From an uncultured bacterium (lineage in GTDB: Bacteria > Bacteroidota > Ignavibacteria > UBA10030 > BY39), in contig CALCJK010000018.1 in assembly GCA_937967455.1 (NCBI GenBank), forward strand, positions 70,293-134,292: 64,000 nt of DNA, in the 5' to 3' direction. Below are positions 45,731 through 64,000 of this stretch, piece after piece. The notes under the pieces were generated by a model that was not told where the DNA came from, made no database searches, and saw nothing but the letters and a program-made list of their open reading frames with translations. Within the stretch, counting starts at the first letter, position 1. Each line of letters opens with the position of its first letter. Both the position numbers and the translations under genes were made by a program.

Positions 45731-46441
45731 ATGAAACTTGAAGAAAAATTATTAAAAAGTGTTTCTGATAATGATAATATCGTAAAGGGGGCTTGGATAG
45801 GTATTACCTGGACTGCTATTGAATCTAAATATGTAGGATTAAGCCATACTTATTGTACATCTGAAATAGTTGACATCGAAAATGCCGGCGAATTGACTTC
45901 TTGTAAAATTTCTGACCTTACAAAACGTATACTTTCCTGGAAACCCCTTGAAGCTTCTATCGGTGTTGCTGCAATTAACTCATTAATCGAACCACGAGGA
46001 AAAAAAGGTAACATAAAAGATTACATCAGAGAAAAATCGCGTGGAAAAATAGTTACTTTTGTTGGACGCTTTCCATTTTACAAAGAGATCTCCGAAATTG
46101 CAAAAAAATCCTTTCTACTTGAAATTAACGCATTTGGAGATGAATTACCATCATTTGCGTGCGAAGAAATCCTGCCAAAATCAGATGTAAACGTAATAAG
46201 TGCAACAGCATTAATAAATCACTCCCTTCAACGATTGTTAGAGTTAGGACAAAATGGAATTAATATCGTACTAGGTCCAACAACTCCACTTTCACCTGTT
46301 TTATTTGATTTTGGGGCTGATGTACTTGCTGGAGTCAAAGTTGTAAATAAACAAGATGTTGTAAAAAGTATTACTCAAGGAGTCAGAAAATCCACGCTAA
46401 TTCATGGAATAGAACCGATTTGTTTATTTAAAAAGCAATGA
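45731..46441 (+). CDS. DUF4213/DUF364-like Rossmann-fold protein (putative metal-chelation/cofactor-associated)
   Basis: 236 aa (MKLEEKLL...GAWIGITWTAIES...GVAAINSLIE...IVLGPTTPLSPVLFDFGADVLAG). Convergent with the TonB-dependent receptor. Confidence 0.4.
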   Translation: MKLEEKLLKSVSDNDNIVKGAWIGITWTAIESKYVGLSHTYCTSEIVDIENAGELTSCKISDLTKRILSWKPLEASIGVAAINSLIEPRGKKGNIKDYIREKSRGKIVTFVGRFPFYKEISEIAKKSFLLEINAFGDELPSFACEEILPKSDVNVISATALINHSLQRLLELGQNGINIVLGPTTPLSPVLFDFGADVLAGVKVVNKQDVVKSITQGVRKSTLIHGIEPICLFKKQ

Positions 46442-46453
46442 TATGGGAGTAAA

Positions 46454-48472
46454 TCAATTATATAATCTTAAATACATATAAACTGTTCTTCCAGCTTCCG
46501 GGTAACCTTCAACTATAGAGTAATTACGATCAAATATGTTATCAATACCCATATAAATTTGAATATTTCTGGACACCTTTATAGCAGATTTTAAATTAAA
46601 TAGTGTAAATGCCCCAGCTTTATAAATACCATCACTTGTACTATATTGTTCTGAGTTAGATTCCATTTCACCTGCAATCTCAAGAATAGAAAATGGGTTA
46701 ATTTGCATATTCAAAATTAGTTTATGCTCAGGCGTATTTATGAATTTTAGAGTTGGATCTGAAATATTTTTTCTTTTAAGAAAAGTATAATTTGTTTCAA
46801 TATTGATTGCGGAAATCGGATGAGCATTCAATTCAACTTCAACGCCGTAGTATCTTGCTTTTCCCATATTTTGCACTTGAGATAAACTTCCTTGAACATT
46901 ATTTACAAGTGTAATTACATCTTTTATATCATTAAAGAATGCACTAACTTTGTAAAAATCTTTTTCATTAAATTTTCCATAAAAAGAAATATCATAATTA
47001 ATGGCATTTTCAGGAATTAAATATGGGTTCGGAATTGCGATTCCTAGCTTATATGAGTACCGATCTTTCATTGTCGCAAATCGTGTTTTTCTGGCAACAC
47101 TAAACAAAATTTTTTGCATAGAAGAAATATCATATATACCTCCAAGTTGTATGTTCCACGCATTAGTATTATCTTTGGGGAAATCTGAAATAACTCCAGT
47201 TTTGCTATTATAATCCTGAGCTTGTAAACTTTTACGAACATTGTAACTTAACCCCCCGACGAGCGAAAAGTTTTCAAGCATTTTATACACATCTTCAATT
47301 CCTACTGAGACTATAGCATCGCGTACCAACCTTACCGGTTCGCCCAAATTATTCTCCCTGTGAATATCGTGCTTGTAATTAAATGCTAGAGTTGTATTAT
47401 GTCGAGAAAAATATCTCGTTTTGCCTTCTAACATTATCCCCCAGGAATCATCATCAAAATAACTGTTGAATGAACTTTTATTGTTCTGCGTTGAATAGGA
47501 GGCATCGTCGAAAGCTCTAAGCATATTTTTGAATTTGTCGTTGAATAAACGCAATTTAATTATTATGTTATCATTTGTTTCTTTATTACCTAACATTGTC
47601 TGCGAAATAAAATATTTGCTAATCTTATCCCATTTAGGCCACCGCCAATAACGAACTGGACTGTTCGGATTGATACCAGTATAAACCGGATTACCTTTTT
47701 CACCTTGTTGATTCATATAACTGAAAGAGTATTCATCGGTTTCGTTTGGTGTAAATCCTAATTTGAAATTATATTTGGTATCTTCCCTATAAGAATTATC
47801 CCTTTCACCACCATCTTCGGTTGTAGTAGCTGTGAATGATTTTGATAATCTGAAAGATTGTTGATCTATTTTTGAAACACTTCCCATAAAATAATACAAA
47901 GACTGATTTGAACCAACATTAACAGAATAATTATACCCACTGTTAATCACGACTCCGCCGGAAATATCATAATCTAATTTTAAAGATGGTTTTCGTGATA
48001 TTAGATTGATAGCTCCACCCATTGCATTAGGACCAAACAAAACTGAAGAAAATCCTTTACTAACAGAAATTCTAGAAATGTCCAAGGTAATAAAACGAGA
48101 TAAATCAACATAACCATCGTATGGAACGTACACAGGTATACCGTCAATAAATATAGGTACCTGCCTCAAATCATACCCGCGCATATAGACCATTGATTCA
48201 TTACGCACACCAACTTTAGAGATATTAAGGCCCGCTAACATTCTCAACGAATGGGATACATCAATATTTTGACGATCATTAGAATTCGATATTTGCAAAA
48301 TTGTTTGATGGAATGGGGATAATTGATCACTTTTATCAGCAAAAATCTCAATTCCTCCAAGGTAAAATACTTTCGAAGTATCGGGAATATTGTCAATAAA
48401 ACAAATAGCATGTTCTGAAAGAGAAATCAAAAATATTATTACTATTGAGATAAAATTATATAGTTTTTCCAT
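46454..48472 (-). CDS. TonB-dependent outer membrane receptor
   Basis: 672 aa with a signal peptide, a plug domain (GIEIFADKSDQ...PGSS-like) and a long beta-barrel. Confidence 0.75.
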   Translation of the reverse strand: MEKLYNFISIVIIFLISLSEHAICFIDNIPDTSKVFYLGGIEIFADKSDQLSPFHQTILQISNSNDRQNIDVSHSLRMLAGLNISKVGVRNESMVYMRGYDLRQVPIFIDGIPVYVPYDGYVDLSRFITLDISRISVSKGFSSVLFGPNAMGGAINLISRKPSLKLDYDISGGVVINSGYNYSVNVGSNQSLYYFMGSVSKIDQQSFRLSKSFTATTTEDGGERDNSYREDTKYNFKLGFTPNETDEYSFSYMNQQGEKGNPVYTGINPNSPVRYWRWPKWDKISKYFISQTMLGNKETNDNIIIKLRLFNDKFKNMLRAFDDASYSTQNNKSSFNSYFDDDSWGIMLEGKTRYFSRHNTTLAFNYKHDIHRENNLGEPVRLVRDAIVSVGIEDVYKMLENFSLVGGLSYNVRKSLQAQDYNSKTGVISDFPKDNTNAWNIQLGGIYDISSMQKILFSVARKTRFATMKDRYSYKLGIAIPNPYLIPENAINYDISFYGKFNEKDFYKVSAFFNDIKDVITLVNNVQGSLSQVQNMGKARYYGVEVELNAHPISAINIETNYTFLKRKNISDPTLKFINTPEHKLILNMQINPFSILEIAGEMESNSEQYSTSDGIYKAGAFTLFNLKSAIKVSRNIQIYMGIDNIFDRNYSIVEGYPEAGRTVYMYLRLYN

Positions 48473-48487
48473 TTCTTCCTCTAAATT

Positions 48488-50218
48488 TTAAACATTATCA
48501 TTTATAAGTGTGTTAACAATTTCGTTATATATATCACTGCTATTTCCATTTTGAATTTTCCATATATGTTTTGGAATAAACTGCCATCGCTCTTTTACTC
48601 TGTCTATTAAACTTTCTCTAATAACCAAAAGAACCGGAACAGACAATTGATTTATAATTTTATCAATTGAATCTGACCATCCTTTATTATTGAGTTCAAG
48701 CGGACCGACTTCATCAATAATGACTAATTTACAATCAGATAAATTTTTCAAATCCAGGACAGAATTACCAAAATTAATACCATCCTCAAAAAAGAGAAAG
48801 CCTCCTTCGTTAATTTTATTTACACCACTATCTATTCTGCAAAGAGGAACTTTATTTTTATTTTGAATATTCATTACGTCATAACCTATACGATTAAAAT
48901 TGTTATGAACAGCAGGCGAAATAATACCACATATTTTAAGATTGTTAATTTTATATTCATTAACAAGTTTTAATAGCAATGTTGATTTCCCATTTCCTTT
49001 ATCTCCAGTAAGGACGAATATGTTGTTTTGCCTTTGGACATTTTTCTCTATCTCCTCTAATCGATTTTTTGCTATTGCTAATAGTTGTGAAAGCGAAGTA
49101 ATTGGATGCCGCAATATTCTTCGCTGATCTTCAAGCAACGACACAGCCGTTGGTAAAGCATCAAAGGCAACTTCCATAGCATTGGCGATCTTGCCAAAAC
49201 CGATATGCAAAAACCAACCAATTATCTTAGGATTACGTAATTCTATACTAATAATATTAAATGCTATAACCATGAACAATGCTCGCAAGCTCATCTGAAT
49301 ACCAGCTATAAGACCACTCCAGGTCCATTCAGAACCTCTATTGGGTATATTCCCAAGTAATAATCCTGCAAGTGAAGTAATAATAATCAATTCAATCCAA
49401 ATCTTTGGCCGATAAAAACGCTTTAATAAATTTGGATACAAAAACAATGCAAATATTGTATAAATCATAACAATACTTGATGACCATATTAAAGATAATT
49501 TACCAATTGCAAGTAATACCAATGGAATAGCAATTACATTCGTTATTAATAAAAGTGTTGAAAACTTTTTTGATGAATTCGCTGCATTTAAAGAAAAAAT
49601 AGATTTGCTCTCACTTCTCGAAGGTGTAATAAAGTCGATAATTGCCGCTTTTTTACCAATTGCAATTCCAAGTATGGCTGCAAAAATACCGAACATTGCA
49701 TACAATAGAAATAAAATACCAATTGCCTGATATGCATTGATAGCTGTTACTCCAATATTCTTGGTAGCAAATTTATATACTTCAACATAAAGTATTGCGA
49801 TATTAAAACCGTATGTTATTATCAAACTTATAATATTTTGTAAAAATGGCAAGCAGGTAGTTATTGCCCCACCAATCAGTATCCCAAGTGTATTCCCACG
49901 CGACAGACGAATAATAATTTCCAGTACAATTGATTCAGTTATTATTCCTATCATTGGACCTAAAATTACAGCGCTCGGTGAAATAGATTTCATCAACGCA
50001 CAAACAACACCTGCTCTCCAAATTAGACCATTTTCTTTCCAGAGAAATCTTCCTCCAACAAGAAGCGATACCCCTATTGCTGAAAGTATCGTACCAGCCA
50101 GTGGTATACGCAAATTATGAAGGAAACTACCAATTATAATCTCAATTGATCCCCAGATGCTACCAAGTAATGCAGCTTTAATCCATAAAGGATTTAAATT
50201 TTTATATTTTTGTTTCAT
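48488..50218 (-). CDS. membrane-embedded transporter-like domain fused to C-terminal P-loop NTPase (THEP1/COG1618-like)
   Basis: About 380 aa of polytopic membrane region followed by a Walker A (VLTGDKGNGKSTLL) and Walker B (LVIIDEVGPLE). Track start 50221 is TTG, and ATG lies at 50218. Confidence 0.55.
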   Translation of the reverse strand: MKQKYKNLNPLWIKAALLGSIWGSIEIIIGSFLHNLRIPLAGTILSAIGVSLLVGGRFLWKENGLIWRAGVVCALMKSISPSAVILGPMIGIITESIVLEIIIRLSRGNTLGILIGGAITTCLPFLQNIISLIITYGFNIAILYVEVYKFATKNIGVTAINAYQAIGILFLLYAMFGIFAAILGIAIGKKAAIIDFITPSRSESKSIFSLNAANSSKKFSTLLLITNVIAIPLVLLAIGKLSLIWSSSIVMIYTIFALFLYPNLLKRFYRPKIWIELIIITSLAGLLLGNIPNRGSEWTWSGLIAGIQMSLRALFMVIAFNIISIELRNPKIIGWFLHIGFGKIANAMEVAFDALPTAVSLLEDQRRILRHPITSLSQLLAIAKNRLEEIEKNVQRQNNIFVLTGDKGNGKSTLLLKLVNEYKINNLKICGIISPAVHNNFNRIGYDVMNIQNKNKVPLCRIDSGVNKINEGGFLFFEDGINFGNSVLDLKNLSDCKLVIIDEVGPLELNNKGWSDSIDKIINQLSVPVLLVIRESLIDRVKERWQFIPKHIWKIQNGNSSDIYNEIVNTLINDNV

Positions 50219-50254
50219 CAATTAATTATTAATTTACATTTGATTTGAGCATAA

Positions 50255-50297: not shown

Positions 50298-50384
50298 TTA
50301 TTTTTAATTCATTTTTTCATTGTATCGCTTCAGCAATTTAAATCATAATATTAACGATCCAATGACTAAATGAACAAATTGTCA

Positions 50385-50535
50385 ATTACATCATTCTCCT
50401 TTCCAAACACGGGAGGCACTAATCTTTCGGTTAGTACCCGTCGCAGCTTTATTAAAGCTGTGAAGTCTATTCCGACTTACTGGTCTGTTACCATATCAAT
50501 CTGACTTAGGTAGACAGACTCGGAGTTTTATCAAA
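50385..50535 (-). ncRNA. candidate structured leader RNA / riboswitch-like aptamer (class not identified)
   Basis: GC-enriched ~150-nt island in an otherwise AT-rich ORF-free region. Four compatible hairpins: ACUAAUC-UUUC-GGUUAGU nested inside ACGGG/CCCGU, then CAGCUUU-AUUA-AAGCUG, AAGUC-UAUUCC-GACUU, and GGUCUGUUACC/GGUAGACAGACU. Strand assigned by context, since it sits upstream of the minus-strand operon and terminator. Confidence 0.35.
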
Positions 50536-51364
50536 GAACTTGTAAAAATATAATCTATTTTAATTTAAAATACAAAGAAGTAATTTGTTGGTTTTTCACA
50601 TTAACAGCTGATATACAAACAAAAGTAACAATTTTAATTTTACTAGAAAAAGTTTTTTAGTTGAAATATTGCCACAAACATTCAAGCGGTAAAAGCATAC
50701 ACCACTTGCGAGATTTGATCCTTTAAACTAAAATTCTTCATTTTCTGCAGATTTGTGTTCATGCACTAATGTTAAAACTTCACGGATGAGCACATCATAT
50801 ATTTTCCATATCTTGAAATGGATAATGAGATTTAGAGTTAGAGTCTATATAAAAAAAGAGCAATATAATTAACAACCTATTTTCTAATATTTTATCATTT
50901 GATTAATTATTTTTGAAAAACATTTAAATTACAAGACTTTTAACGGAAAAATTCACTTATCCGGCATAAAATATTTATAAATATTAAGTTTTTTCAATAT
51001 TTATAGCCATTTCTATAGTGGTTCCACATCTTTCTTCTTAACAATTTCTTAATATTCTGTTAACTTACTCGTAACCTATAATTTTTATATTTATACAAAT
51101 TTTATTCTAGGTTTCGGGTTTATTATGGTAATCCAACAATTAATTTTGAAGATAACAAAACGAACTCATCAGTTGCGCTTAGGATTAAAAACTCAAAATA
51201 TAAATTCAGATAAAAATTATAATAGCTTTATACATAAAAAAATAACTTACAAAGTTGCACTCGAGCTGGACAACATCAATAAATGGTGAATTAATTTAAT
51301 AAAATTATTGGAAACTTTAAGCGTGTCGTAAACTTAGATAATTTTTAAAAAGAAAGGACTAAAA

Positions 51365-54214: not shown

Positions 54215-56934
54215 ATGATGGATACTGAAACAATAAAACAGGAAATCAGAAAGCTTGTAGAGAAATACAATAAAGTTGTAGAAGAAAAGCGAGTCGGCAA
54301 GTACAACGAGGAGATGACTAAAAAAGATTTTATTCTTCCACTTTTTCGTGCTTTGGGCTGGAACACCGAAGATTCAAACGAGGTTACTGCTGAAGAAAAA
54401 ATCTCCAAAAAAAGAGTTGATTATGGTTTCAGAATTAATGGCATTCCTAAATTTTTCCTTGAAGCAAAAGCACTAAAAGAGGATCTGGACAATCCTAAAT
54501 TTATTGAACAGGCAATTAATTACGCATGGCATAAGGGCTGCACCTGGGCAGTTCTTACTGATTTTGAAAGCGTGAAAATCTTTAATGCAGAATGGAAAAC
54601 ATCTAACCCATTGCAAAGCCATCTTAAAACAATTCCATACCAGGAATTTTTAGAGAGGTTCAGTGAATTGTGGCTTTTGTCGAGAGAAAGTTTTGAGCAA
54701 GGATTAATTGATAAAGAAGCTGAAAAATGGGGAAAGAAAACAAAAAAGATTTCTGTTGATAAACAGCTTTTGGCTGACTTCACAAGATTCAGAGAATTGC
54801 TTTCAAAAAACATAATGAAGTTAAATCAAAACAAAAATATTACGGAAGAAGAGTTAGACGAGTCAATTCAGAGAATTCTGGACAGACTGATTTTCATAAG
54901 AAACTGTGAGGACAGAGAGCTTGAAGCAAAAACTTTAATCTCCAGCTTCAGGGAATGGGAAAGCAGAGGCAGAGGACAGTTAATAAAAAGTTTAAGAGAA
55001 GTTTTTGCCTATTTCGACGAACAATACAACAGCAAGATATTTGCTAAACATTTATGCGATAGTTTGGATATAGACAATGAGGTTTTGCACGAAATTATTG
55101 AGGGACTTTATTTTACAAAGGACAAATCTGTTTCTTATGATTTTTCAGCTATTGAAGCAGATGTCTTAGGCAATATTTACGAGCAGTATTTAGGACATAT
55201 TTTAAAGAAAAGCGAGAAGAGGGCGAAACTTACAGAAAGCCATGCACGCAGAAAAGAACAGGGAATTTATTACACACCTACATATATTGTTGATTACATT
55301 GTTAGAAATACTTTGGGAGAATTGCTTAAAGACAAAAAAGTAGATCTTGAAAAAATCAGAGTGTTAGACCCTGCCTGCGGTTCTGGCTCATTCTTGATTA
55401 AAGCTTTTGATGTTTTGAATGAGTACTATGCAAAGCACGACAAAAACTATTCACAGACGCAGATTGACTTTGAAACGAGTATGCCATTCACAACGAAAAT
55501 AAAAATCCTTAAAAACAACATTTTCGGTGTTGATTTGGATAAACAGGCAGTAGAAATTGCACAGCTTAATCTTTTATTGAAAATTGCAGAAAAAGGGGCA
55601 TCGCCTTCCATTGCTCCAGGAAAATATTAAATGCGGAAATTCCTTAATTGACGACCCAGCAATAGCAGGAGACAAAGCTTTCAAATGGGAAGAAGAATTT
55701 AAAGAAGTAATGCAAGAAGGCGGGTTTGATGTGGTGATTGGGAATCCGCCTTATGTATTTACAAGAGATGTAGAATTTCAACAATCGTTCAAAGAGTATG
55801 TTCAAAATAACTACTTTAAAGGTTTGGAATCAATATCTAAAAGTAAAGCAATCTGGGAAAGTTAATCTTTATGCTATCTTTCTGATTAAAGCAATTAAAT
55901 TATTAAGAAATCGTGGGATTTTTGGTTTTATTATTCCCAATAATATTTTGAGAACAACTACTTATGATATTATAAGAAAATTCATTTTGGATAATTGTAA
56001 AATATTAAAAATTGTTGATTTGGGGGCTGATGTATTTGAGGGAGTTACAGCAGCAACAATTATTTTAATTTTAGAAAAAGAAGACAGCAAAATCAAAAGA
56101 GATAAAAATAAAGTTGTAATTTATTCTGGAATTAATTTAAACGATAAAAAAGAAGTTGAGCAAAAAGAATTTTTAGAGAATACAAGTTATACATTTAATA
56201 TAACTCTCGGAAAGGAAGATAGAAAGATTTTTGATAAGATTGAGAAAGGTTCAATTTTGCTTGGCAACGAGTCAAAATATATAATTGAGGGAATTGTTGG
56301 AAATAGAAAAAAAGATGTTGTAGACTCCCCGATTAATGATAAATGTAGAAAATTCTTGGTCGGCAAAGATATAGGTAGATATAAAATTGATTACAAAGGC
56401 AAATATATTATTTATGATAAAAATAGGCTTAATCGTGCGAGACCAGAAGAAGTATTCACCTCTAAAAAAATAATTATTCAAAGAATAAGCGGCGGGAATA
56501 GACCTTTAGCTTGTGTTTTAGATACTCAAAAATATTATACCTTTGCATCAACAAATCTTATACTTCTAAAAGACGATTCTAACTTTGAATTAGAATATAT
56601 TACAGGGTTATTGAATTCAAAACTAATAAACTATTATTATGTAAATAAATTTACAAACAAATCAACTTTAACTGTGAATATTTCGAGGACATATTTGGAA
56701 CAAATTCCAATAAAACTCATCCAAGAATCCGAACAACAGTCAATAATAAACCTCGTCGACAAAATGCTCTCACTCAACAAACGCCTCAATGAAATCGGCG
56801 ACAAAAAGACAGATGAAAGAGCAAGAATTGAAGAAGAAATCAAAAATACAGATACTGAAATTGATGAGCTTGTTTATAAAATTTATGGCATAACCGAAGA
56901 AGAGAAAAAGATTATCGAGGATAGTTTGGAATAA
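54215..56934 (+). pseudogene. Type IIG (Eco57I/MmeI-like) restriction-modification enzyme, interrupted by two frameshifts
   Basis: Three consecutive overlapping ORFs. ORF 54215..55630 has an N-terminal nuclease-like domain plus MTase motif I (VLDPACGSGSFL). ORF 55584..55865 carries NIKCGNSLI and the NPPY motif IV. ORF 55798..56934 has the LYAIFLIKAIKLL...IIPNNIL helper region and a C-terminal TRD. Frame switches occur near the A5G4 run at 55592-55600 and at ~55830-55860. Confidence 0.7.
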
Positions 56935-57155
56935 CGTCGTTTAATCTAACGGCTCGGCGCATTTAAAAAGAATTATATTGAAATGAAGAAAGAAGTCCTT
57001 TTGATTTTTTAAAAAAAAATTATGATATTAATGAAAACTATATTACAAATAAATTGTTTGATTCAGGAGAAAAAGATAAAACAACTAAAAGAAATATAAA
57101 GTAATTATAAGAGTTATTAGCCATCGTAAACAAACTAATCAGAAAGTAATTCCAT

Positions 57156-57924
57156 ATGGCTAAGTATAAGCTTACGATCGCACATGACACATTCCATTAT
57201 TACCAACTTCAAGTTCTTTTTCTGTCTCTTATCAAAAATTCCAAAAGCGTCGAAGCTCTAGCCCGCAAACTTTCTGACCAGCAACTTAAAAGTAGAGAAT
57301 ATGAAACGATTCGGGATTGCAGTATGATCACGCGTAAGATGCCCACACTGGTCACGTTACTTTCTTTATCAGTTCCTAACGCCAATGAGCATTGTTAATG
57401 CATTTTTCGTCTTCGGCCTAACGCTTGATGTTCTTGGTGCGTTCTACTTGGCACAGAGTTTCATAACCAAAGGTCTAGAGGATCTCACCTTCGAGGGTAC
57501 GTCAGGCTATGGTAGTCCGCCAAACCTACGTTACATAAGAAGCAACCTTTATCAGAAAGCTGAAGCACAAATTGGATTCTTTCTTCTTGCAACCGGGTTC
57601 ATCCTTCAGGCATTTGATTACATCTATCTCAACAAGTCAGACTCTCTAACTATTGATACTTACTATGTTCTTATTGGCGTTCTTCTAATAAGCGTCGTCG
57701 GTTTTCTTTTAGCAAGAGTTGTGAGAAATAAGCTGTTCACCCGTTACGCTAGGCGAATGGCATTCATTGTCATCAGAGAAAGCAAGCCAGAAAATTTTCG
57801 CAATGACAAATGGATAGTCACTGTAGCTCATTACCTTCTTCCAAAACTTGAACGTGAACCGAACGAAGATGACCAATCATTTGCCAGTAGAGTATTATTG
57901 GAAATTGGTTTTAAATACAAGTAA
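57156..57924 (+). CDS. cassette 1: hypothetical 4-TM membrane protein (179-aa ORF 57385..57924) preceded by overlapping 80-aa ORF 57156..57398, possibly one frameshifted gene
   Basis: MSIVNAFFVFGLTLDVLGAFYLAQSF... with about 4 TM helices. GC content is higher than the flanks. The upstream ORF ends in a hydrophobic stretch (LVTLLSLSV) in another frame. Confidence 0.35.
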
Positions 57925-57935
57925 TTTGCAACGGC

Positions 57936-58030
57936 GTATAACAGAACCTATATTGAAATTAGATAAAGCGGTTCGCACAAATTTCCCTTCAGAAAACTTC
58001 ATAAATGCAATAAATCAATAAAAGTTATAT
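57936..58030 (+). repeat. attC-like site D (R'' GTATAAC ... R' GTTATAT)
   Basis: TATAAC immediately after the stop codon and GTTATAT at 58024-58030. Length is 95 bp. Confidence 0.4.
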
Positions 58031-58186
58031 TTGTTCTATACAGAGTCCATTTGAATCTTTCTTAAAAATAGCTTAAATTAGAATAGAAATAAAAGCAGAA
58101 AGAATTAAATGAATAATAAACTAAATGAAATAAAAACGAAATATTGCGTAATTACTGAAGTTATGCGCAATTGGCAACTTTGACCT

Positions 58187-58888
58187 ATGGTTACATCATA
58201 TCTCGACCGAATCAAGCAAGAGATTCGTTCTAGCCCGACGGCTTCGTTCACAGAATCAGTTGAGTACCATCTGGACTACCTTCAACCGAGGCTTGCGGGT
58301 TTCGACAAGCTGACAAGAAAGCTATATCATTCAATCAGCCAGCCGCAGCAGTTCTGTGACTTCCTGACCGAGGCTCATTGGGCGATGGTTCTACTTCATC
58401 TTGGCGGAAATGCCGAATACGAACCTTTGGGTGAATCTGGTCCTGACATTCGATTCCATTTCGACGGCCAGAAAGCGGACCTGCACTGCAAGCGTTTACG
58501 TAATGACCCCAAGACTGCTGAAAAATTGAAAAACTATCGAGGACAACTGGTCGAATATGGCAACGTTCTCGACGACACGGTGAGCCTCTTCGACAGAATC
58601 ACATCTGAGAGACCCCGACACATAGATTCTACTCTCCCACAGATCGTTGCCTATTGGTCTGACAGCGAGCGAATCGAGGAACACGAATTCGACTACGCAA
58701 TAAGAGACATTCAATCTGCTGCGGCTGGCGGCAAACACCTTTGGATTAGTGCGGTCATCTACAAAGTCAGAATATCCCAAGGGTTTATATATTGGTACAG
58801 TCCATTCGCAACTGTGCAGGTACCGACTGAATTGAAAATTGAATTTGAGAAATTGCAGCCTTGGCCATCAGTTGCCAACTGCACATAA
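58187..58888 (+). CDS. cassette 2: hypothetical protein (high GC, possible PD-(D/E)xK-like nuclease fold)
   Basis: 233 aa at about 48% GC against a ~33% background. Contains GPDIRFHFDGQKADLHCK. The stop codon is embedded in the R'' box. Confidence 0.4.
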   Translation: MVTSYLDRIKQEIRSSPTASFTESVEYHLDYLQPRLAGFDKLTRKLYHSISQPQQFCDFLTEAHWAMVLLHLGGNAEYEPLGESGPDIRFHFDGQKADLHCKRLRNDPKTAEKLKNYRGQLVEYGNVLDDTVSLFDRITSERPRHIDSTLPQIVAYWSDSERIEEHEFDYAIRDIQSAAAGGKHLWISAVIYKVRISQGFIYWYSPFATVQVPTELKIEFEKLQPWPSVANCT

Positions 58889-59100
58889 CAGCACAAACCA
58901 CGACACTCGTTTTATGAAAATGGATTATTGTACTCATTCCATTGTTTTTGCCGATAAAATAGATTGCAGCTCCAGCCGCACGAAAAAATTAGTTAATAAG
59001 AGTGCGGCTGTCGCCGCAACATTTTGCCCACCTCGTGGCTTCGCCACTTCGGTAGGCATTAACGGCAAAAACAACGGCGTGCTTACGCTAAACGTTATAT
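58883..59100 (+). repeat. attC-like site A (R'' ACATAAC overlapping stop ... R' GTTATAT)
   Basis: ACATAAC at 58883-58889, an internal 9-bp inverted repeat CAGCCGCAC/GTGCGGCTG, and GTTATAT at 59094-59100. The left 42 nt are homologous to the left end of site B. Confidence 0.45.
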
Positions 59101-59137
59101 GAAATGGCGGTTTCAAGATGAATAGAGGTAGAAAAAT

Positions 59138-60274
59138 ATGAAATCTAACGATAGTACTCAATTAACACTAGAAAATTTAGAAGATGTTCCACTTACTTAT
59201 GGAGCAGTGATATTAAATAAAGAAAAATTCATTGAAGTTTTATCTGGAATTGTTAATACGGACGATATGAATTCTGTAAAAAATAGGGTCATTATCTTAA
59301 AAGATATTTTAGCTAATCACAGAAAAGATCAAGAAGGGATATTAAATATTGATACTAACGGAGATACTATCCTACTTCGACGAGATGTTATTATTTCTGA
59401 ATTAAATCAGATTATAGAATCTCAGACGAAGGAAAGAGCCGATTACTATTTAAAAAGATTGATAGAGGGAGCTCAAAAAGTCAAAACAAGCAAAATCAAC
59501 GACATAAATCTTTTAAGGTGGAAGGAATATGGCGAAATTATTACTGATAGCCTTTGGATGTTAGGCAAAAGAGATACTTCGGGAGCACATCTTGGATGGT
59601 ACTGGGGGAACTTTATCCCCCAAATTCCGCATCAAATGATGTTAAGATACACCAAAAGAGGGGATTGGGTTTTAGATACTTTTGTTGGAAGTGGAACAAC
59701 CTTAATTGAATGCCGAAGATTAGGTAGAAACGGAATCGGTATAGAATTAAATACAGAAGTGGCACAGAGTGCAAAAGAATTAATTGGAAAGGAGCAAAAT
59801 AGAGATAATGTGGTCAGTGAAGTAATTATTGGCGATAGTAGAACTATAGATATAAGAGAAATTTTAGAAAGATATAAAATTAATCAAGTTCAACTTCTTA
59901 TTATGCACCCGCCTTATCACGATATTATTAAGTTTTCAAAAGACAAAAATGACCTCTCAAATGCAAAGAATACAGAAGAATTTTTAAAAATGTTTGGGGA
60001 AGTAGTGGATAATGCTACTTCATATTTAGAAAAAGGAAGATATTTTGCATTAGTTATTGGTGATAAATACTCCAAAGGCGAATGGATACCTTTGGGCTTT
60101 CTCTGTATGCAAGAGGTATTGAAAAGAGGATACAAGTTAAAAAGCATAATTGTAAAGAATTTTGAAGAAACAAGAGGAAAGAGGAATCAAAAGGAACTTT
60201 GGCGATACAGGGCATTAGTTGGCGGGTTTTACATTTTTAAGCATGAATATATTATGCTATTCAAGAAAAAATAG
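59138..60274 (+). CDS. cassette 3 gene 1: DNA methyltransferase (N6-adenine/N4-cytosine, PF01555-like)
   Basis: IPHQMMLRYTKRGDWVLDTFVGSGTTLIECRRLGRNGIGIEL (SAM-binding motif I region) and LLIMHPPY (motif IV). Confidence 0.7.
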   Translation: MKSNDSTQLTLENLEDVPLTYGAVILNKEKFIEVLSGIVNTDDMNSVKNRVIILKDILANHRKDQEGILNIDTNGDTILLRRDVIISELNQIIESQTKERADYYLKRLIEGAQKVKTSKINDINLLRWKEYGEIITDSLWMLGKRDTSGAHLGWYWGNFIPQIPHQMMLRYTKRGDWVLDTFVGSGTTLIECRRLGRNGIGIELNTEVAQSAKELIGKEQNRDNVVSEVIIGDSRTIDIREILERYKINQVQLLIMHPPYHDIIKFSKDKNDLSNAKNTEEFLKMFGEVVDNATSYLEKGRYFALVIGDKYSKGEWIPLGFLCMQEVLKRGYKLKSIIVKNFEETRGKRNQKELWRYRALVGGFYIFKHEYIMLFKKK

Positions 60275-60285
60275 GAGATAAAACT

Positions 60286-61119
60286 ATGCCATTATTAAGT
60301 CAAAAAGAAGTATTAAATTTAAAACTCAGTTGTATTCCATTACCGCAGTTAAAAACGTTCACTCTAAATTTAGGAATTAGTAACACTGGTTCAGCGGGAG
60401 AGATTATTAAAAGAGTTTTAGACAAGGAAATAGATGTAAAAATTGTGCAGGAATTCATAAAACAAAAATATAATGAGAAGATTCAAAAACGGAGAGAGAT
60501 TATTTCTGATGAGGATTTAAAGAGAGAGTTAATGAAGGTTAAAACTTTTTCTTGGGGTGTAATTCAGGGGCAATTGGATCAAAAAATACAAACTGAATAT
60601 GTAAGAAGAATTGTCCGATATGAAGAGTTGCTGAATAATGTTAGGGCGAAACTTCATGATGAGGTAACAAATTATGTAATTTGCACATGGTTTAACCATT
60701 GGACAACTGTGCTAATAGAAGAACATATAAGCACTCATTCAAAAGTAATCCCTACTATTAAAAACATAAAAGGGATTGATATTTTCTTTGATGGGCAACC
60801 ATTTGATTTAAAAGTAACTTATTTACCACGCGAATATAATCCAGTAGATGCGATAAAAAATCCTTCTGAATTGGCAATCTGGCTATATGAAAATCAAGGT
60901 GCTCAAAGATTTGGGTCTGATAACCGGTTATTTGTTGTTTTGTTAGATAAAGATAATCCTGAACGAAGTTGGGAGTTAAAAAGAGATTTTGTCCTTGTAT
61001 TTCAGATGATTGACAATTTCTTTAATAAGGAAACCGTTTCAAAGAAAGATGAGATTGTTTTCACTTTTGGAAGAAAAACATATACGGCAGTTACAAAAGT
61101 ATTAATAATAACAAAATGA
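60286..61119 (+). CDS. cassette 3 gene 2: putative cognate restriction endonuclease (inferred from context only)
   Basis: 277-aa ORF starting 12 nt after the methyltransferase stop and lying in the same cassette. No recognisable motif. Confidence 0.3.
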   Translation: MPLLSQKEVLNLKLSCIPLPQLKTFTLNLGISNTGSAGEIIKRVLDKEIDVKIVQEFIKQKYNEKIQKRREIISDEDLKRELMKVKTFSWGVIQGQLDQKIQTEYVRRIVRYEELLNNVRAKLHDEVTNYVICTWFNHWTTVLIEEHISTHSKVIPTIKNIKGIDIFFDGQPFDLKVTYLPREYNPVDAIKNPSELAIWLYENQGAQRFGSDNRLFVVLLDKDNPERSWELKRDFVLVFQMIDNFFNKETVSKKDEIVFTFGRKTYTAVTKVLIITK

Positions 61120-61132
61120 AACCGCTACTTCA

Positions 61133-61361
61133 TATAACACAGCATAAAAGTCACAGCCCTTTTTCCAAAAGGGCTGGATCCAGCCCATTCTTTAGAATGG
61201 GCTGTGAGTTCGTGTCTTATGGCACTCACCCAAACCCAGCACTTTTTAGGTGGGCAATGCGAACCTACTTCTTGAGGAGACGATATTATAAGGGTTTCAG
61301 TGATGTGTAGAAGAAAAACGATAAAAAAGTGCTGGGCTTCTTTTATGCTGGGAACGTTATA
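61133..61361 (+). repeat. attC-like site C (R'' ATATAAC ... R' GTTATAT) with strong hairpins
   Basis: ATATAAC at 61133-61139. Hairpins AGCCCTTTT-TCC-AAAAGGGCT and CAGCCCATTC-TTTA-GAATGGGCTG. A 13-bp long-range inverted repeat CCCAGCACTTTTT/AAAAAGTGCTGGG. GTTATAT at 61355-61361. Confidence 0.5.
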
Positions 61362-61404
61362 TGTAATTGGCGTGCAAATTTTAAAAAACTAGGAGGACAA
61401 AGAA

Positions 61405-61896
61405 ATGGCCAGAAAAGTATTTTATAGTTTTTATTACAAAGAAGATAACTGGAGAGCGTCTCAAGTTAGAAGTATGGGAATTATTGAAGGCAACCAACCT
61501 GTTTCAGATAATGATTGGGAACAAATTAAAAAAGGCGGAGATGAAGCCATTAAAAGATGGATTAATCAACAACTTAATGGTAGGTCATGTACTATAGTTT
61601 TAATTGGGACAAATACAGCAGGAAGAAAATGGATAAAATATGAAATTGAAAAATCTTGGAATGACAGGAAAGGATTATTGGGTATTTACATTCATAATTT
61701 AAAAGATAAAAATGGTAACAAAAGTTACAAAGGAAATAATCCATTTGATGATTTTCAGCTTAACGGTAAACCATTGTCACAAATAGTTAAAGCCTATGAT
61801 CCTCCATATTCAAATAGTAAAGATGTTTATGATTATATAAAAAACAATATAGCATCATGGGTTGAAGAAGCCATAAGTATTCGTAATAATTATTGA
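61405..61896 (+). CDS. cassette 4 gene 1: TIR-like (MTH538/DUF1863, Thoeris ThsB-like) protein
   Basis: MARKVFYSFYYKEDNWRASQVRSMG...CTIVLIGTNTAGRKWIKYEIEKSW...GIYIHNLKDKNGNKSYKGNNPFDDF closely follows the ThsB/DUF1863 pattern (KVFxSFhYxD..w..nqvRn ... CVLIG..T..R.WV.YEI ... GIHIN..KDK.GN...KG.NPFD). Confidence 0.65.
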   Translation: MARKVFYSFYYKEDNWRASQVRSMGIIEGNQPVSDNDWEQIKKGGDEAIKRWINQQLNGRSCTIVLIGTNTAGRKWIKYEIEKSWNDRKGLLGIYIHNLKDKNGNKSYKGNNPFDDFQLNGKPLSQIVKAYDPPYSNSKDVYDYIKNNIASWVEEAISIRNNY

Positions 61897-61908
61897 GAGA
61901 ATAAGAAT

Positions 61909-62343
61909 ATGGAAGAAAAAAAAACTGATATCAATTCTCAGGCTGTTCAATCACATTTAAACATTACCCAGTCTGTGATACAGCGAATGGCAACGAATAG
62001 TTCTTCATGCAAAGCGTGGTGTATAACAGTAGTTTCAGCAATTTTGGTTATTGTAGCAGATAAAGGGAAATCTCAATATGCTTATATTGCAATAATACCG
62101 AATATTCTTTTTTTGGTTTTAGATACTTATTATTTAGCCTTGGAAAAAATGTTTCGCATTTCATATAACGATTTTATAAAAAAATTACATGAAAATGTGA
62201 TTGACTTTTCCGATTTATTTGTAGTTATTCCAAAAGGAAACTTGATAAAAATGTTTTTTAAGTCTATTATATCATTTTCTGTTTGGCTATTCTACTTAAC
62301 GCTTTTAATTATGATATTATTAGCAAAAGAAATTATACTTTGA
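61909..62343 (+). CDS. cassette 4 gene 2: 144-aa three-TM protein (candidate membrane effector partner of the TIR protein)
   Basis: A soluble 35-aa N-terminus, then TM segments AWCITVVSAILVIVA, YAYIAIIPNILFLVLDTYYLAL and FSVWLFYLTLLIMILLA. Starts 12 nt after the TIR gene. Confidence 0.5.
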   Translation: MEEKKTDINSQAVQSHLNITQSVIQRMATNSSSCKAWCITVVSAILVIVADKGKSQYAYIAIIPNILFLVLDTYYLALEKMFRISYNDFIKKLHENVIDFSDLFVVIPKGNLIKMFFKSIISFSVWLFYLTLLIMILLAKEIIL

Positions 62344-62378
62344 AAGAATATGATTGAGAAGAATAACACGCCAACAAC

Positions 62379-62432
62379 ATATAACAGCGGCTATACGCCA
62401 TTAAAACGGCGCATAGCCGCAAACCGTTATAC
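62379..62432 (+). repeat. attC-like site E (compact 54 bp: ATATAAC-ag-CGGCTATACGCC-attaaaac-GGCGCATAGCCG-caaacc-GTTATAC)
   Basis: The R'' and R' boxes are inverse complements in 6 of 7 positions. The L''/L' 12-bp inverted repeat has one mismatch and asymmetric spacers, the classic attC architecture. Confidence 0.55.
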
Positions 62433-62456
62433 GCAATGTGCGCAACGGAGGATGAA

Positions 62457-62996
62457 ATGACTAAGACAGTTTTGATCTGCCTATTTACCTTTTTCGTAAT
62501 TGTAAGCGGATGCAAGAAGGAAACTATCACAGGACCCACTGAACCGCAAGATCTTATTTCGAACGTGTCATTCGAACTCAACGGCAATCCGTCCATCGAT
62601 GGTTGGATTTATTGGAGCAATGTCGACTCAATGGTTCAGTTTTCCAATGATGTACCGAACGGAGGCGGTAATTGGTCAGTCCATCTCCGGGTCGGTGATC
62701 GAGTTGTCAAATTCTTGCAGACGAAAATAGCCGCACCTACTGGACGCAATCGCTTCAGAATATCTGTATGGGCACGAAGAGGTCTCATGGAAGCCGGAGG
62801 AAGCCCAAGCGTTGCTGTTCTTTCCCTCAATGACACAACCCGAAAGATTCTCAACGTTCAGGATACAACGTGGGGATATTATGAAGCTTTCGATACGATC
62901 GACACAGTAATTGGAGATAGTCTAACGGTAAGGCTTGGTGATGGATATCTGAGTGAAACATATTTCGATCTGTGCCGCTTACAATTACTTAAATAA
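62457..62996 (+). CDS. cassette 5: lipoprotein of unknown function (beta-sandwich/CBM-like?)
   Basis: Signal peptide plus lipobox MTKTVLICLFTFFVIVSGC. Higher GC. The track ORF starts at 62436 (MCATEDE). Confidence 0.5.
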   Translation: MTKTVLICLFTFFVIVSGCKKETITGPTEPQDLISNVSFELNGNPSIDGWIYWSNVDSMVQFSNDVPNGGGNWSVHLRVGDRVVKFLQTKIAAPTGRNRFRISVWARRGLMEAGGSPSVAVLSLNDTTRKILNVQDTTWGYYEAFDTIDTVIGDSLTVRLGDGYLSETYFDLCRLQLLK

Positions 62997-63012
62997 CACT
63001 TGCGCACACTGC

Positions 63013-63167
63013 ACATAACACGGCAAACAACGACACTCGTTTATTTGATATGGCTATGTTGAATCTCGGTAAAACAAATAGTTGTGCTCGTTCCATCCCG
63101 TCCGCCACGAAGAATGAGTCATTTATGGTGGCGGAACGGGACGTCGTTGTTTGCCGAGACGTTAGGC
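63013..63167 (+). repeat. attC-like site B (R'' ACATAAC ... R' GTTAGGC)
   Basis: GGCAAACAACGAC pairs with GTCGTTGTTTGCC at 13 bp. An internal bulged inverted repeat CCATCCCGTCCGCCAC/GTGGCGGAACGGGACG. A canonical GTTRRRY core GTTAGGC at 63161-63167. Confidence 0.55.
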
Positions 63168-63195
63168 GAAACGGTGAAGTAAGAAGGTGAAGATA

Positions 63196-64000
63196 TGATA
63201 GATTTTATTGTATCAATTTTTATTGTGCTTTTCGCTGTATCGGTAGTGATTGTTGCAAGAGTTATTATTAATAAGCGTAAGAGACTGTGCGAGTTAAAGA
63301 AAGAAGAAGAAAAGAAGGCACAAGAGGAGCAAAAGAAAAGATGTCAAGAAGAAAATCCTCTTAGGGAATTAGAAGAAGCCAAAGACAGCAAAGAGAAGGC
63401 AGATATAAAACAATTGGAGCCTGAGGAGAAAGAATTAGAGGTAGAATCAGAAGAGATCAAACAGGAAGAACAAGAAGAATGGCCGGAGCCAGTGAAAACG
63501 ACCCCACCCAATAAAAGAGGGGGAAGACCAAGAGGCAATACAGAACAGGGATCTTCAAGTGAGACATCTCCTGAGGAGAGACCACGCCATTTGAAGCCCG
63601 AAATCATTTGTTGGAATAAAAATCGGAACTGGATTGTTTGCATAGAGGTTCCTGAAGAGATTGTATCGCCACGAGTAACTCAAAATGATGAATTACTTGA
63701 GCAGGATACTTCCGATAATACCCGTTACCATCTTAAATACCTCGAGGGTAAAGTAAAAGTTTCTTGGAACAATGGGGAACAAGAGAAAGAAATCCGTATC
63801 CCTGTTACCGAAGAAGGCAGGAATTATCTTGTTTTCAAAATGCGAAAAGATTGGCATGGATTGGGGAGGCTGGTCAAATACCCGACAACCGGCTACTATC
63901 TAATAATTGTTCCAGAAGAATGGCAACGCGACGAAAAGGCGTCAGGCTCCGCTCCTGTAGTACCAGAAAATGTTCAAGTAAACGGATATAAAGCACATTT
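63196..64000 (+). CDS. cassette 6: membrane-anchored protein with Glu/Lys-rich linker and C-terminal globular domain (partial, continues past window end)
   Basis: Not in ORF track (no stop before the window end). ATG 63196 follows GAAGGTGAAG. Manual translation reads MIDFIVSIFIVLFAVSVVIVARVIINKRKRLCELKKEEEKKAQEEQKK...RYHLKYLEGKVKVSWNNGEQEKEIRIPVTEEGRNYLVFKMRKDWHGLGRLVKYPTTGYYLIIVPEEWQRDEK..., open to position 64000. Confidence 0.55.

Follow-up and report, generated by a model that had tools for sequence, protein, structure and literature searches.

We conclude that positions 57.1–64 kb of the 64,000-nt stretch of DNA analysed here (hereafter the window) are very probably the visible part of an integron-type gene cassette array in the chromosome of a member of the order Ignavibacteriales. 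The region holds at least six co-oriented cassettes, with every ORF on the + strand and GC content alternating between ~0.28–0.33 and ~0.44–0.51 from cassette to cassette, as the initial annotation had described. That annotation had proposed an integron-like array lacking an integrase within the window, and the proposal is borne out by cassette borders at G|TT, by an attC family with a compensatory stem, and by an IntI-like recombinase and attI-like site found at related loci elsewhere. A CALIN is a cluster of attC sites (two or more) without an integron integrase within 4 kb; here, four model-supported sites lie within 4.3 kb, with one more junction, and no recombinase is present in the window. 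CALIN is the better reading of the array as it is visible here, a class assignment that depends on the sites being accepted as attC. We further propose, with a little less than even confidence, that the array is a stray fragment of a very common but as yet undescribed integron lineage of Bacteroidota/Ignavibacteriota. In this lineage, the integrase would never have acquired, or would have lost, the I2-helix domain; attC would carry an asymmetric loop instead of extrahelical bases; the integrase would be co-oriented with its cassettes; and attI would lie just 3' of its stop codon.

Five recombination sites of 54–231 nt were recognised, all on the + strand. The intact long site s3 (61132–61362) runs from R'' ATATAAC through a single A, an 11-bp L stem, a branched interior and GGAAC to R' GTTATAT; its bottom strand folds at -47.5 kcal/mol (z = -8.25 vs shuffles), with the R and L stems closing the structure. 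Site s4 (62379–62432), intact and 54 nt long, reads ATATAAC-A-GCGGCTATACGCC-loop-GGCGCATAGCCGC-AAACC-GTTATAC (bottom strand -17.4 kcal/mol, z = -5.84 vs shuffles). Site s5 (63013–63167), also intact and belonging to an environmental family marked by the motif CGACRCTC, reads ACATAAC-A-CGGCAAACAACGAC...GTCGTTGTTTGCCG-AGAC-GTTAGGC; its fold has z = -5.0 vs shuffles, and its entire length aligns with sites of two metagenomic arrays (L097 and L099). Site s2 (58883–59100; R'' ACATAAC, R' GTTATAT at 59094–59100) belongs to the same family and aligns with the attC 3' of a homologue of the cassette 2 ORF (ORF2) in L097. It is decayed: the L' arm is partly replaced, and most of the partner of the inner stem's left arm is gone. 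Its R'' box contains the stop codon of ORF2. Site s1 (57936–58166; R'' GTATAAC at 57936–57942, R' GTTATGC at 58160–58166) is a decayed, AT-rich attC with a weak fold. Of the five attC sites first announced, three are intact hairpins and two, s1 and s2, are degenerate. All ten heptamers quoted in the initial annotation were found in place (R'' at 57936, 58883, 61132, 62379 and 63013; R' at 58024, 59094, 61356, 62426 and 63161), but the first site had been wrongly bounded at 57936–58030: homology of cassette 2 puts its true right box at 58160, not at the GTTATAT of 58024.

The ends of the sites agree with the attC boxes (R'' RYYYAAC and R' GTTRRRY, mutually pairing), and all carry xxxxAAC...GTTxxxx, with several R' boxes, such as GTTATAT, deviating from RRR. 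R'' and R' pair at 7/7 positions in s3, at 6/7 in s4 and s2 and at 4/7 in s5, so that the earlier description of R' as the inverse complement of R'' holds fully for s3 and is reduced to TAAC/GTTA in s5. An inner L''/L' stem, which in attC is preserved as structure and not as sequence, is present in s3, s4 and s5 with 11–14 bp. The two or three extrahelical bases of L'' that determine the choice of strand are absent from these three sites, whose L stems show no bulges in bottom-strand folds, contrary to the extrahelical-base geometry that had been anticipated. Their sole asymmetry is a 1 x 4–5 nt internal loop between the R and L boxes.

The sites were scored with a log-odds model trained solely on attC sites taken from other metagenomic arrays. 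The top four distinct sites of the whole window were s5 (62.2 bits), s2 (30.4 bits), s4 (26.4 bits) and s3 (21.7 bits), all on the + strand; the only other score of that rank came from s5 read in an alternative, overlapping register (26.8 bits). Among 60 simulated windows the highest score was 22.8 bits, which places s3 within the top of the null distribution, and real GC-rich control DNA gave ~1 match of at least 25 bits per 78 kb. Site s1 scored 5.5 bits. The scan returned no further copies of the sites elsewhere in the 64 kb. Site s4 was also the top match (21 bits, E = 0.0087) of an Infernal model, R2, of the same attC family built without window sequences. A class 1 attC-core model recognised none of the window sites; this says little, because it also missed the genuine dfrA1 attC and is too narrow. 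Rfam holds no attC family, and the known aadA1 and dfrA1 sites match nothing there.

Cassettes join at the G|TT of the right-hand box. Homology of cassette 2 among the window and two other arrays (L097 and L098) begins exactly at G|TTATG, and the sequences upstream differ; the same junction is thus seen in three independent arrays and again at the attI-like site of two further loci (L221 and L222, below).

The cassette contents match those first listed (an RM pair, a TIR module, a lipoprotein and unassigned proteins), and the cassette proteins recur in related metagenomic attC arrays. Cassette 1 (57114–58160, +; GC 0.40–0.44) carries two ORFs (57156–57398 and 57385–57924) with no Pfam or PADLOC match. 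Its right border is fixed by the junction with cassette 2 and its left border is uncertain, the candidate GTTATTA at 57113–57119 being without support. The single ORF of cassette 2 (58161–59094, +; ORF 58187–58888; GC ~0.5) has no assigned function; its homologues (P0002–P0010, 57–76% identical) lie within arrays of co-oriented small ORFs. Cassette 3 (59095–61356, +; GC ~0.30) encodes a type II N6/N4 DNA methyltransferase (59138–60274; Pfam PF01555; PADLOC MTase_II, 492 bits) and a 277-aa partner, a putative restriction endonuclease (60286–61119); a 60% identical homologue occurs in array L210. Cassette 4 (61357–62426, +) is a candidate two-gene defence system composed of a ThsB-like TIR protein (61405–61896) and a PDC-M50A protein (61909–62343), with matches to Pfam ThsB_TIR and to PADLOC ThsB (251 bits), PDC-M50B (226 bits) and PDC-M50A (104 bits); array L190 contains homologues of each. 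Cassette 5 (62427–63161, +; GC ~0.47) holds a lipoprotein-like ORF (62457–62996) whose signal peptide, judged by eye from the sequence, ends in Cys. Homologues 32–38% identical occur in L204, L156 and L111, and in L204 a family attC begins 19 nt 3' of the homologue. Cassette 6 (63162–64000, +) contains an ORF that starts at 63195, runs past the window end and has no family match in searches that included PADLOC. To the left of the array, a type IIG RM gene (54215–56934, +; Pfam N6_Mtase, Eco57I and TaqI_C) is split into two ORFs (54215–55630 and 55798–56934) that match PADLOC PDLC03604 at profile positions 6–482 and 569–743 of 1011. Homologues of this gene lie inside attC arrays (L181, L162 and L220), and no significant attC was found 3' of it; it may be an older cassette, its membership of the array not being established.

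The family that includes s2 and s5 occurs in at least 120 metagenome stretches, compared with ~3 expected by chance from a rough estimate of the collection size. A complementary L' arm followed by GTT was present in 87/127 pattern matches, compared with 3–18/127 in scrambled-target controls, and gapless pairing over the first 10 bp or more of the L stem was seen in 87 of the 127 family sites. Compensatory changes were seen at 10 of 12 L-stem pairs, a count biased by site selection and supported by the scrambled-target control. L-stem mismatches showed no preference for G.U on the + strand. Wherever a locus had two or more sites these lay on the same strand (49/49), at a median distance of 789 nt. 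The length mode of the family is ~131–133 nt, and internal motifs are conserved. Three arrays (L094–L096) carry a second attC family, with canonical extrahelical bases.

An IntI-like tyrosine recombinase stands directly upstream of family sites, and co-oriented with them, in 11 related loci. Six of these (L121, L191, L112, L164, L165 and L132) are among the 126 loci fetched by attC pattern or ORF2 homology, where the recombinase has a fixed position and orientation; the other five (L219, with 12 sites, L220, L221, L222 and L224) were reached from the recombinase side. Cassette arrays are present in 10 of the 11, no site of L222 reaching the model threshold. A canonical IntI was found in none of the 126 fetched loci. 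In every copy readable there (at least five), the IntI-specific additional domain around patch III, the I2 helix, is absent: relative to IntI1, ~40 residues around this helix have no counterpart, and residues 180–237 of VchIntIA are unmatched. The catalytic R, K, HxxR, H and Y and the C-terminal SPLD motif are conserved. Identity to IntI1 is 35–38%, and the best PDB match is IntI4/VchIntIA (PDB 2a3v). TIGR02249 matches these recombinases in two stretches, at 220–247 bits for a cut-off of 265; the integron integrase models score 220–247 bits vs 172–187 bits for XerC/D, and 2/4 recombinases pass the NCBIfam model NF040815 (‘XerA/integron integrase’). An attI-like site lies directly 3' of the recombinase stop codon. 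Loci L221 and L222 share 99.98% identity across 5683 bp and part immediately after ...CAATAGTT, at a G|TT 66 nt past the recombinase stop, where different cassettes are inserted. These recombinases head a large clade: up to ~7,900 database proteins match at E <= 1e-40, a maximum in which ordinary Xer-type recombinases may be counted.

Within the window itself, tblastn with IntI1 and six related recombinases found no tyrosine recombinase or remnant in 64 kb (nothing below E = 0.1), which upholds the earlier statement that no intI is present, and the attI palindrome motif of the related loci did not rise above chance level. Neither an adjoining intI nor an attI at the array head, the marks of a complete integron, was seen here. 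The initial annotation had left the choice between a CALIN and an integrase beyond the window; the former is the better reading, and an integrase beyond the right end is unlikely because the orientation of the cassettes puts any integrase on the left. The tie between this CALIN and the recombinases is drawn from sequences of other contigs rather than from its own genome, and is proposed on that footing. Counting against the main reading, an integron-type array, are the lack of integrase and attI in the window, which leaves activity on this array putative, the decay of s1 and s2, and the missing extrahelical bases, which canonical attC recombination requires.

We weighed whether the array could instead be an ordinary CALIN of a canonical integron, with a standard IntI bearing the additional domain elsewhere in the genome and the domain-less recombinases as unrelated, for example Xer-like, neighbours. 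Complete integrons (IntI with its specific domain) have been reported in Chlorobi and Ignavibacteriae (PMC9024848), a record that also removes the novelty implied when the host was described as non-proteobacterial, correct as that description is. Arrays L094–L096, with their canonical extrahelical bases, fit such an origin as well, and the recombinase search of the source genome covers the 64-kb window. Yet canonical IntI is missing from all the fetched loci, and the judgeable copies in the six with an IntI-like recombinase all lack the domain; the contexts reached from the recombinase side again show arrays (L222 without a site at threshold); L221 and L222 part at G|TT just past the stop of a domain-less recombinase; and the missing extrahelical bases match the missing domain that reads them. 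We consider this origin unlikely. Far less probable still is that the hairpins are unrelated repeats (REP elements, MITEs or terminators) that happen to lie among defence-island genes. The RM and TIR genes of the cassettes and the terminator-like position of hairpins 3' of stop codons would suit this, but no T-run follows the stems, the 64 kb hold no more copies, the AAC...GTT termini are conserved and the junctions fall at G|TT, linkage to a recombinase and attI is seen, and L-stem mismatches lack the + strand G.U preference expected of RNA structure. Least credible of all is an array read from right to left, with sites inverted relative to the ORFs and an integrase past the right end, as the surplus unpaired bases on the + strand 3' arm (opposite to canonical extrahelical bases) and the lack of an integrase on the left might suggest, since cassette 2 homology sets in at the upstream site's right-hand box, the two GC-rich cassettes each have the same site family at their 3' side, and every related locus has its recombinase upstream of sites in the same orientation relative to the ORFs.

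The array resembles CALINs and sedentary chromosomal integrons (PMC4889954, PMC9024848) in its co-oriented cassettes, which bear a folded attC with AAC...GTT termini on the 3' side and join at G|TT, in its mixed GC content, in its many unassigned or defence genes and in having no integrase within 4 kb. Its sites and those of the family differ from the attC of such elements by an L stem without extrahelical bases, an R–L spacer of 1 nt vs 4–5 nt, great length (54–231 nt) and conserved internal family motifs. Class 1 attC (aadA1, dfrA1) share the R''/R' boxes, paired L box, variable loop and GTT crossover, whereas in aadA1 two bases are extrahelical (GTT-C-AAGCCG-A-C) and the spacers measure 5 and 6 nt. 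As in the reverse-orientation integrons of Treponema and Spirochaetota (PMC3607928, PMC9668308), the integrase of the related loci is co-oriented with the cassettes, with the insertion site downstream; this integrase nevertheless lacks the IntI-specific additional domain by which the class of integron integrases is defined (PMC9668308), and its hosts are Bacteroidota/Ignavibacteriota. It shares catalytic residues and SPLD with IntI1 and VchIntIA, minus ~40 residues, and has the length and architecture of XerA and of XerC/D acting at dif. It differs from XerC/D in scoring higher on integron integrase models and in heading cassette arrays, and its insertion site varies between contigs and is not a chromosome dimer resolution site as in Xer/dif. 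Our literature search found no description of integrons that combine a domain-less integrase with attC devoid of extrahelical bases. Such attC, with a 1 x 4–5 nt loop and beside domain-less IntI-like recombinases, do look new.

In the integron-type array as we read it, each cassette opens with a short leader, continues with one or two ORFs on the + strand and closes with attC. Once single-stranded, attC folds with its ends paired as the R box (xxxTAAC with GTTAxxx); beyond the asymmetric internal loop of 1 nt by 4–5 nt come an L box of 11–14 bp and a variable interior. The cassettes of the window would have been inserted by an integrase of the domain-less type, and the array later lost or parted from its platform, or else built in trans at a secondary site. 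By analogy with known integrons, recombination would proceed via folded single-stranded DNA, and its polarity may be set by the asymmetric loop, extrahelical bases being absent. Cassettes 4 and 5, which lie between intact sites, could be excisable by an integrase encoded elsewhere, and those adjoining the decayed s1 and s2 are probably fixed. Activity has been reported to require the additional domain (Messier and Roy 2001, as cited in PMC9668308), and the I2 helix has been presented as what took recombination from double-stranded to single-stranded DNA (PMC7790495).

Taken alone, the window adds one more integrase-less cassette array to a phylum already known for integrons. It carries RM and TIR defence systems as cassettes, in agreement with a 2024 preprint that presents sedentary integrons as reservoirs of such systems (10.1101/2024.07.02.601686). 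Detection software that depends on the IntI-specific domain would report arrays of a domain-less lineage as CALINs. If such a lineage is real, it could account for some of the unexpected abundance of CALINs and would give reason to widen integron detection tools. It would also offer a natural test of the real need for the additional domain and extrahelical bases, and possibly a glimpse of the integron in an early or alternative form.

The comparison of cassette 2 with its relatives in other arrays is the decisive evidence for the recombination sites. The protein of this cassette (ORF2, 58187-58888) has homologues of 57-76% identity, and the four homologue contexts examined, on metagenomic contigs, were all runs of small co-oriented ORFs. 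When the window was aligned with two other loci, L097 and L098, the upstream sequences differed and the three became alignable exactly from GTTATG(C/T)GCAATTGGCAAC. Because homology sets in at GTTATG, the alignment fixes the left junction of cassette 2 at the G|TT of 58160-58166, the end of the site that closes cassette 1 (s1, 57936-58166), and not at GTTATAT at 58024, where the initial annotation had put it. At the level of sequence, the same onset proves the standard polarity, in which an ORF is followed by its site and crossover would take place in the right-hand box. The sites 3' of the ORF2 homologues resemble s2 (58883-59100), and the site preceding the homologue in L097 is nearly identical to s5 (63013-63167).

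A fossil copy of cassette 2 was found amid ordinary genes in L093 (8470-9560), its left GTTATGT changed to GTCATGT and its attC collapsed to ACACAC|GTTAGC. A second, very homogeneous attC family was encountered in L094 (410-8946), L095 and L096, with sites of ~190-200 nt and canonical boxes GCCTAAC...GTTAGGC; two extrahelical bases are present in its L'' inner stem arm (GGCGCT-C-AAGCTG-A-CGG), exactly as far from the R'' box as those of the aadA1 attC. As an ORF2 homologue occurs in one cassette of this second family, cassettes appear to move between arrays of different site families.

Folded as single-stranded DNA, s3 (61132-61362), s4 (62379-62432) and s5 pair their terminal boxes, and beyond these come a small internal loop and an 11-14-bp stem; the z-scores are -8.3, -5.8 and -5.0, respectively, and none of 200 shuffles each folds equally well. 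The ten heptamers quoted as boxes by the initial annotation were all present where it had placed them; its expectation that the five sites fold held for these three and failed for s1 and s2, which fold poorly at their ends.

Several detectors proved unsuitable for scoring the sites. At curated thresholds, Rfam returned a Moco riboswitch as its sole match in the window, and a relaxed search gave chance matches only; its silence is uninformative because it has no attC family, and the genuine aadA1 and dfrA1 attC sites of a Salmonella plasmid match nothing in it. A covariance model built from ten known class 1 cores (R1) recognised its own family and missed all window sites, a silence that is likewise uninformative since this too narrow model also misses the genuine dfrA1 attC. 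Two generic hairpin scans were too unspecific, one recovering s3, s4 and s5 along with unrelated palindromes and the other giving ~10 matches per random window.

An Infernal model (R2) and a log-odds model were then trained solely on foreign sites, none of them from the window. With R2, s4 was the best match in ~98 kb (the window and three control loci; 21 bits, E = 0.009). R2 is blind to long sites, whose interior exceeds the maximum length of the model, and we therefore relied on the log-odds model, which ignores interior length and scores every AAC...GTT pair. The top four distinct sites in the window were s5 (62.2 bits), s2 (30.4), s4 (26.4) and s3 (21.7), with an alternative register overlapping s5 at 26.8 bits; the top-scoring sites lie on the + strand throughout, each just 3' of an ORF. 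Across 60 simulated windows the best score was 22.8 and the median 17.4. Real control DNA, much of it GC-rich, yields about one match of at least 25 bits per 78 kb, so that s3 and s4 are convincing only in combination with their folds, position and strand. Most of the L' arm of s2 is gone, and s1 is a decayed remnant (5.5 bits). No significant site was found left of 57.9 kb, and a search of 52.9-58.3 kb for a site or attI at the left border gave nothing above noise.

A pattern derived from the part common to s2 and s5 (TAACA-N10-CGACRCTC-N16-46-TTGTNNTCGYTC) matched at least 120 metagenome stretches, against ~3 expected by chance on a rough estimate of collection size. In 87 of 127 matches, the ten bases after TAACA have their reverse complement 60-330 nt further downstream, with 2-7 nt and then GTT behind it, compared with 3-18 of 127 for scrambled targets. 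The layout is constant, namely an R'' box of 7 nt, one A, a bulge-free L stem of 12 bp, a variable interior, L', four bases and R', and site lengths cluster near 131-133, 146, 155 and 203 nt. Ten of the 12 L-stem pairs have changed on both sides, and sliding the partner column abolishes pairing. Site selection biases this compensatory count upward, an objection answered by the scrambled-target control. We conclude that selection maintains base pairing across arms separated by more than 100 nt. The window proteins that recur in related arrays are the methyltransferase, the two members of the TIR system, the lipoprotein-like ORF product and a type IIG enzyme. Two sequences, CGACGCTCC and TTGTGGTCGCTCC, are direct-repeat-like and conserved inside the interior where variation is expected, for example at 63033-63095 of the window and at 2136-2200 of L097.

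Searching 126 loci, selected by attC pattern or ORF2 homology, with IntI1 (tblastn) identified six IntI-like genes and one weaker recombinase. All six IntI-like genes lie upstream of the sites and co-oriented with them, the stop codon being ~60-130 nt from the first cassette where this gap was readable. They are 29-56% identical to IntI1 (30-36% for the four full-length copies). These four keep the catalytic residues and a C-terminal SPLD motif and lack ~40 residues present in IntI1. The nearest NCBIfam model was 'integron integrase' TIGR02249, matched in two separate stretches at 220-247 bits, below its cut-off of 265; two of the four passed NF040815 ('XerA/integron integrase'). Among solved structures VchIntIA was the closest, likewise aligned in two stretches with residues 180-237 left out, and XerA was the next. 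As many as 7,869 database proteins match this large clade at E <= 1e-40, a ceiling that may also take in ordinary Xer-type recombinases, and several members are named by NCBI 'site-specific tyrosine recombinase/integron integrase [Bacteroidota bacterium]'.

A look-up from the recombinase side, with four proteins, added six further loci. The gene is followed by a run of small co-oriented ORFs in five of them, one of which, on a contig of 4.5 Mb, has twelve consecutive sites; in the sixth (L223) the contig ends ~0.5 kb beyond the recombinase gene. In L222, one of the five, no site reached the model threshold. Elsewhere, the recombinase gene heading the array of L165 (598-1194) appears disrupted, with a truncated N-terminus and an unrelated insert. 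At the end of a contig assigned to a Candidatus Eisenbacteria bin (L067, 3-155), a stretch of 50 encoded residues shares 78% identity with the C-terminus of IntI1 and may represent a class 1-like integrase, or contamination.

L221 and L222, which come from different samples, are 99.98% identical over 5,683 bp, recombinase gene included, and diverge directly past ...CAATAGTT, 66 nt beyond the stop codon, where their first cassettes differ. Judged from this alignment, the divergence is the footprint of insertion at a putative attI, with crossover at G|TT. An attI-like design common to seven loci consists of a palindrome such as ACGACATATGTCGT, a gap of ~25 nt, another palindrome of this type, a further ~11 nt and GTTRRRY. 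It follows the recombinase stop codon in L219 (10867-10950), L220 (10894-10975) and L164 (824-920), with equivalents 3' of the stop codon in L121, L165, L112 and L221. The attC family has the half-site AACGAC as well, at the inner end of L''. Site anatomy, junction positions and, in these other loci, the physical link to recombinase and attI are matters of direct observation. No occurrence of the attI palindrome motif beyond chance was found in the window.

Beyond 57.1 kb, all sizeable ORFs of the window lie on the + strand. The composition alternates between cassettes, as had been remarked, and successive blocks have a GC content of ~0.40-0.44 (57.2-57.9 kb), 0.47-0.51 (58.2-58.8 kb), 0.29-0.39 (59.1-61.1 kb), 0.28-0.33 (61.4-62.3 kb) and 0.45-0.48 (62.4-63.0 kb). 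The gene content announced by the initial annotation (a restriction-modification pair, a TIR module, a lipoprotein and unknowns) was borne out: a type II N6/N4 methyltransferase is paired with a 277-aa partner, a ThsB-like TIR protein and a PDC-M50A protein make up a candidate defence system, PDC-M50, one ORF is lipoprotein-like and several have no assigned function. The last ORF had no match in scans of genome and metagenome collections.

Directly left of the array, a type IIG restriction-modification gene on the + strand (54215-56934) is split into two ORFs and is probably a pseudogene. Its homologues sit within the attC arrays of L181, L162 and L220, and it may be an old cassette with a decayed site. 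Genes for TauE and MFS transporters lie farther left, as does the Moco/tungsten riboswitch (50380-50537, - strand; 72 bits, gathering score 36), which is situated 5' of a - strand operon with an NTPase gene (48488-50221) and a TonB-dependent receptor gene (46454-48472). A DUF364/DUF4213 'heavy-metal chelation' gene (45731-46441) adjoins this operon. A strong 60-nt palindrome (40583-40642) at the start of an ORF (40579-41733) bears no relation to the attC sites. The window contains no tRNA gene and, as the initial annotation had stated, no tyrosine recombinase (tblastn with IntI1 and six closer recombinases, nothing below E = 0.1).

The MFS protein is 87% identical to a protein of an Ignavibacteriales bin, the closest relatives are mostly Ignavibacteria or 'Bacteroidota' bins, and one window protein carries a type IX secretion signal. 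None of 80 MFS-gene relatives shares the neighbouring genes, and no comparable locus was found among them. The sole sequences retrieved by look-ups with window proteins were two short Logan unitigs from run ERR9287617 (L001, window 59064-62411, and L002, window 58135-59093), both identical to the window and ending at or inside attC sites. These ends look like assembly breakage at repeated attC sequence; the alternative is that they reflect cassette-level variation in the sample.

The initial annotation had described the host as non-proteobacterial. Complete integrons are known from Chlorobi and Ignavibacteriae (PMC9024848) and Bacteroidota are listed among integron carriers (PMC9668308, PMC8618304), so the taxonomic angle is not new. 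The extrahelical-base geometry expected by the initial annotation was not found either: unlike canonical attC, the present sites have no extrahelical bases, a 1 x 4-5 nt loop is their sole asymmetry, and their surplus bases lie on the arm opposite the canonical extrahelical bases. Mismatch types in the L stem revealed no bias that would indicate the strand used (8 G.T against 10 A.C on the + strand). The additional domain (I2 helix) is repeatedly stated to define integron integrases (e.g. PMC9668308), and the lack of extrahelical bases would fit an integrase without the domain that contacts them. The literature surveyed, which covered integrons in these phyla, the reverse-oriented Treponema integrons and the account of the I2 helix, contained no description of integrons with such an integrase, a silence that is weak evidence given incomplete coverage.

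We infer the chemistry, the strand used and present-day activity. On the model of known integrons, the folded single strand of attC would be bound by the integrase at its R and L boxes and cleaved at G|TT, and the cassette would leave as a circle and enter at attI. Cassettes 4 and 5, between intact sites, may be excisable in trans, and the decay of s1 and s2 suggests an old, fixed left part of the array. Neither an integrase nor an attI was found in the upstream 57 kb, which makes the array a CALIN, an attC cluster without an integron integrase; it would either have parted from its platform or been assembled at a secondary site. The array itself is of an already known type, and the lineage to which it belongs is probably a new variant.
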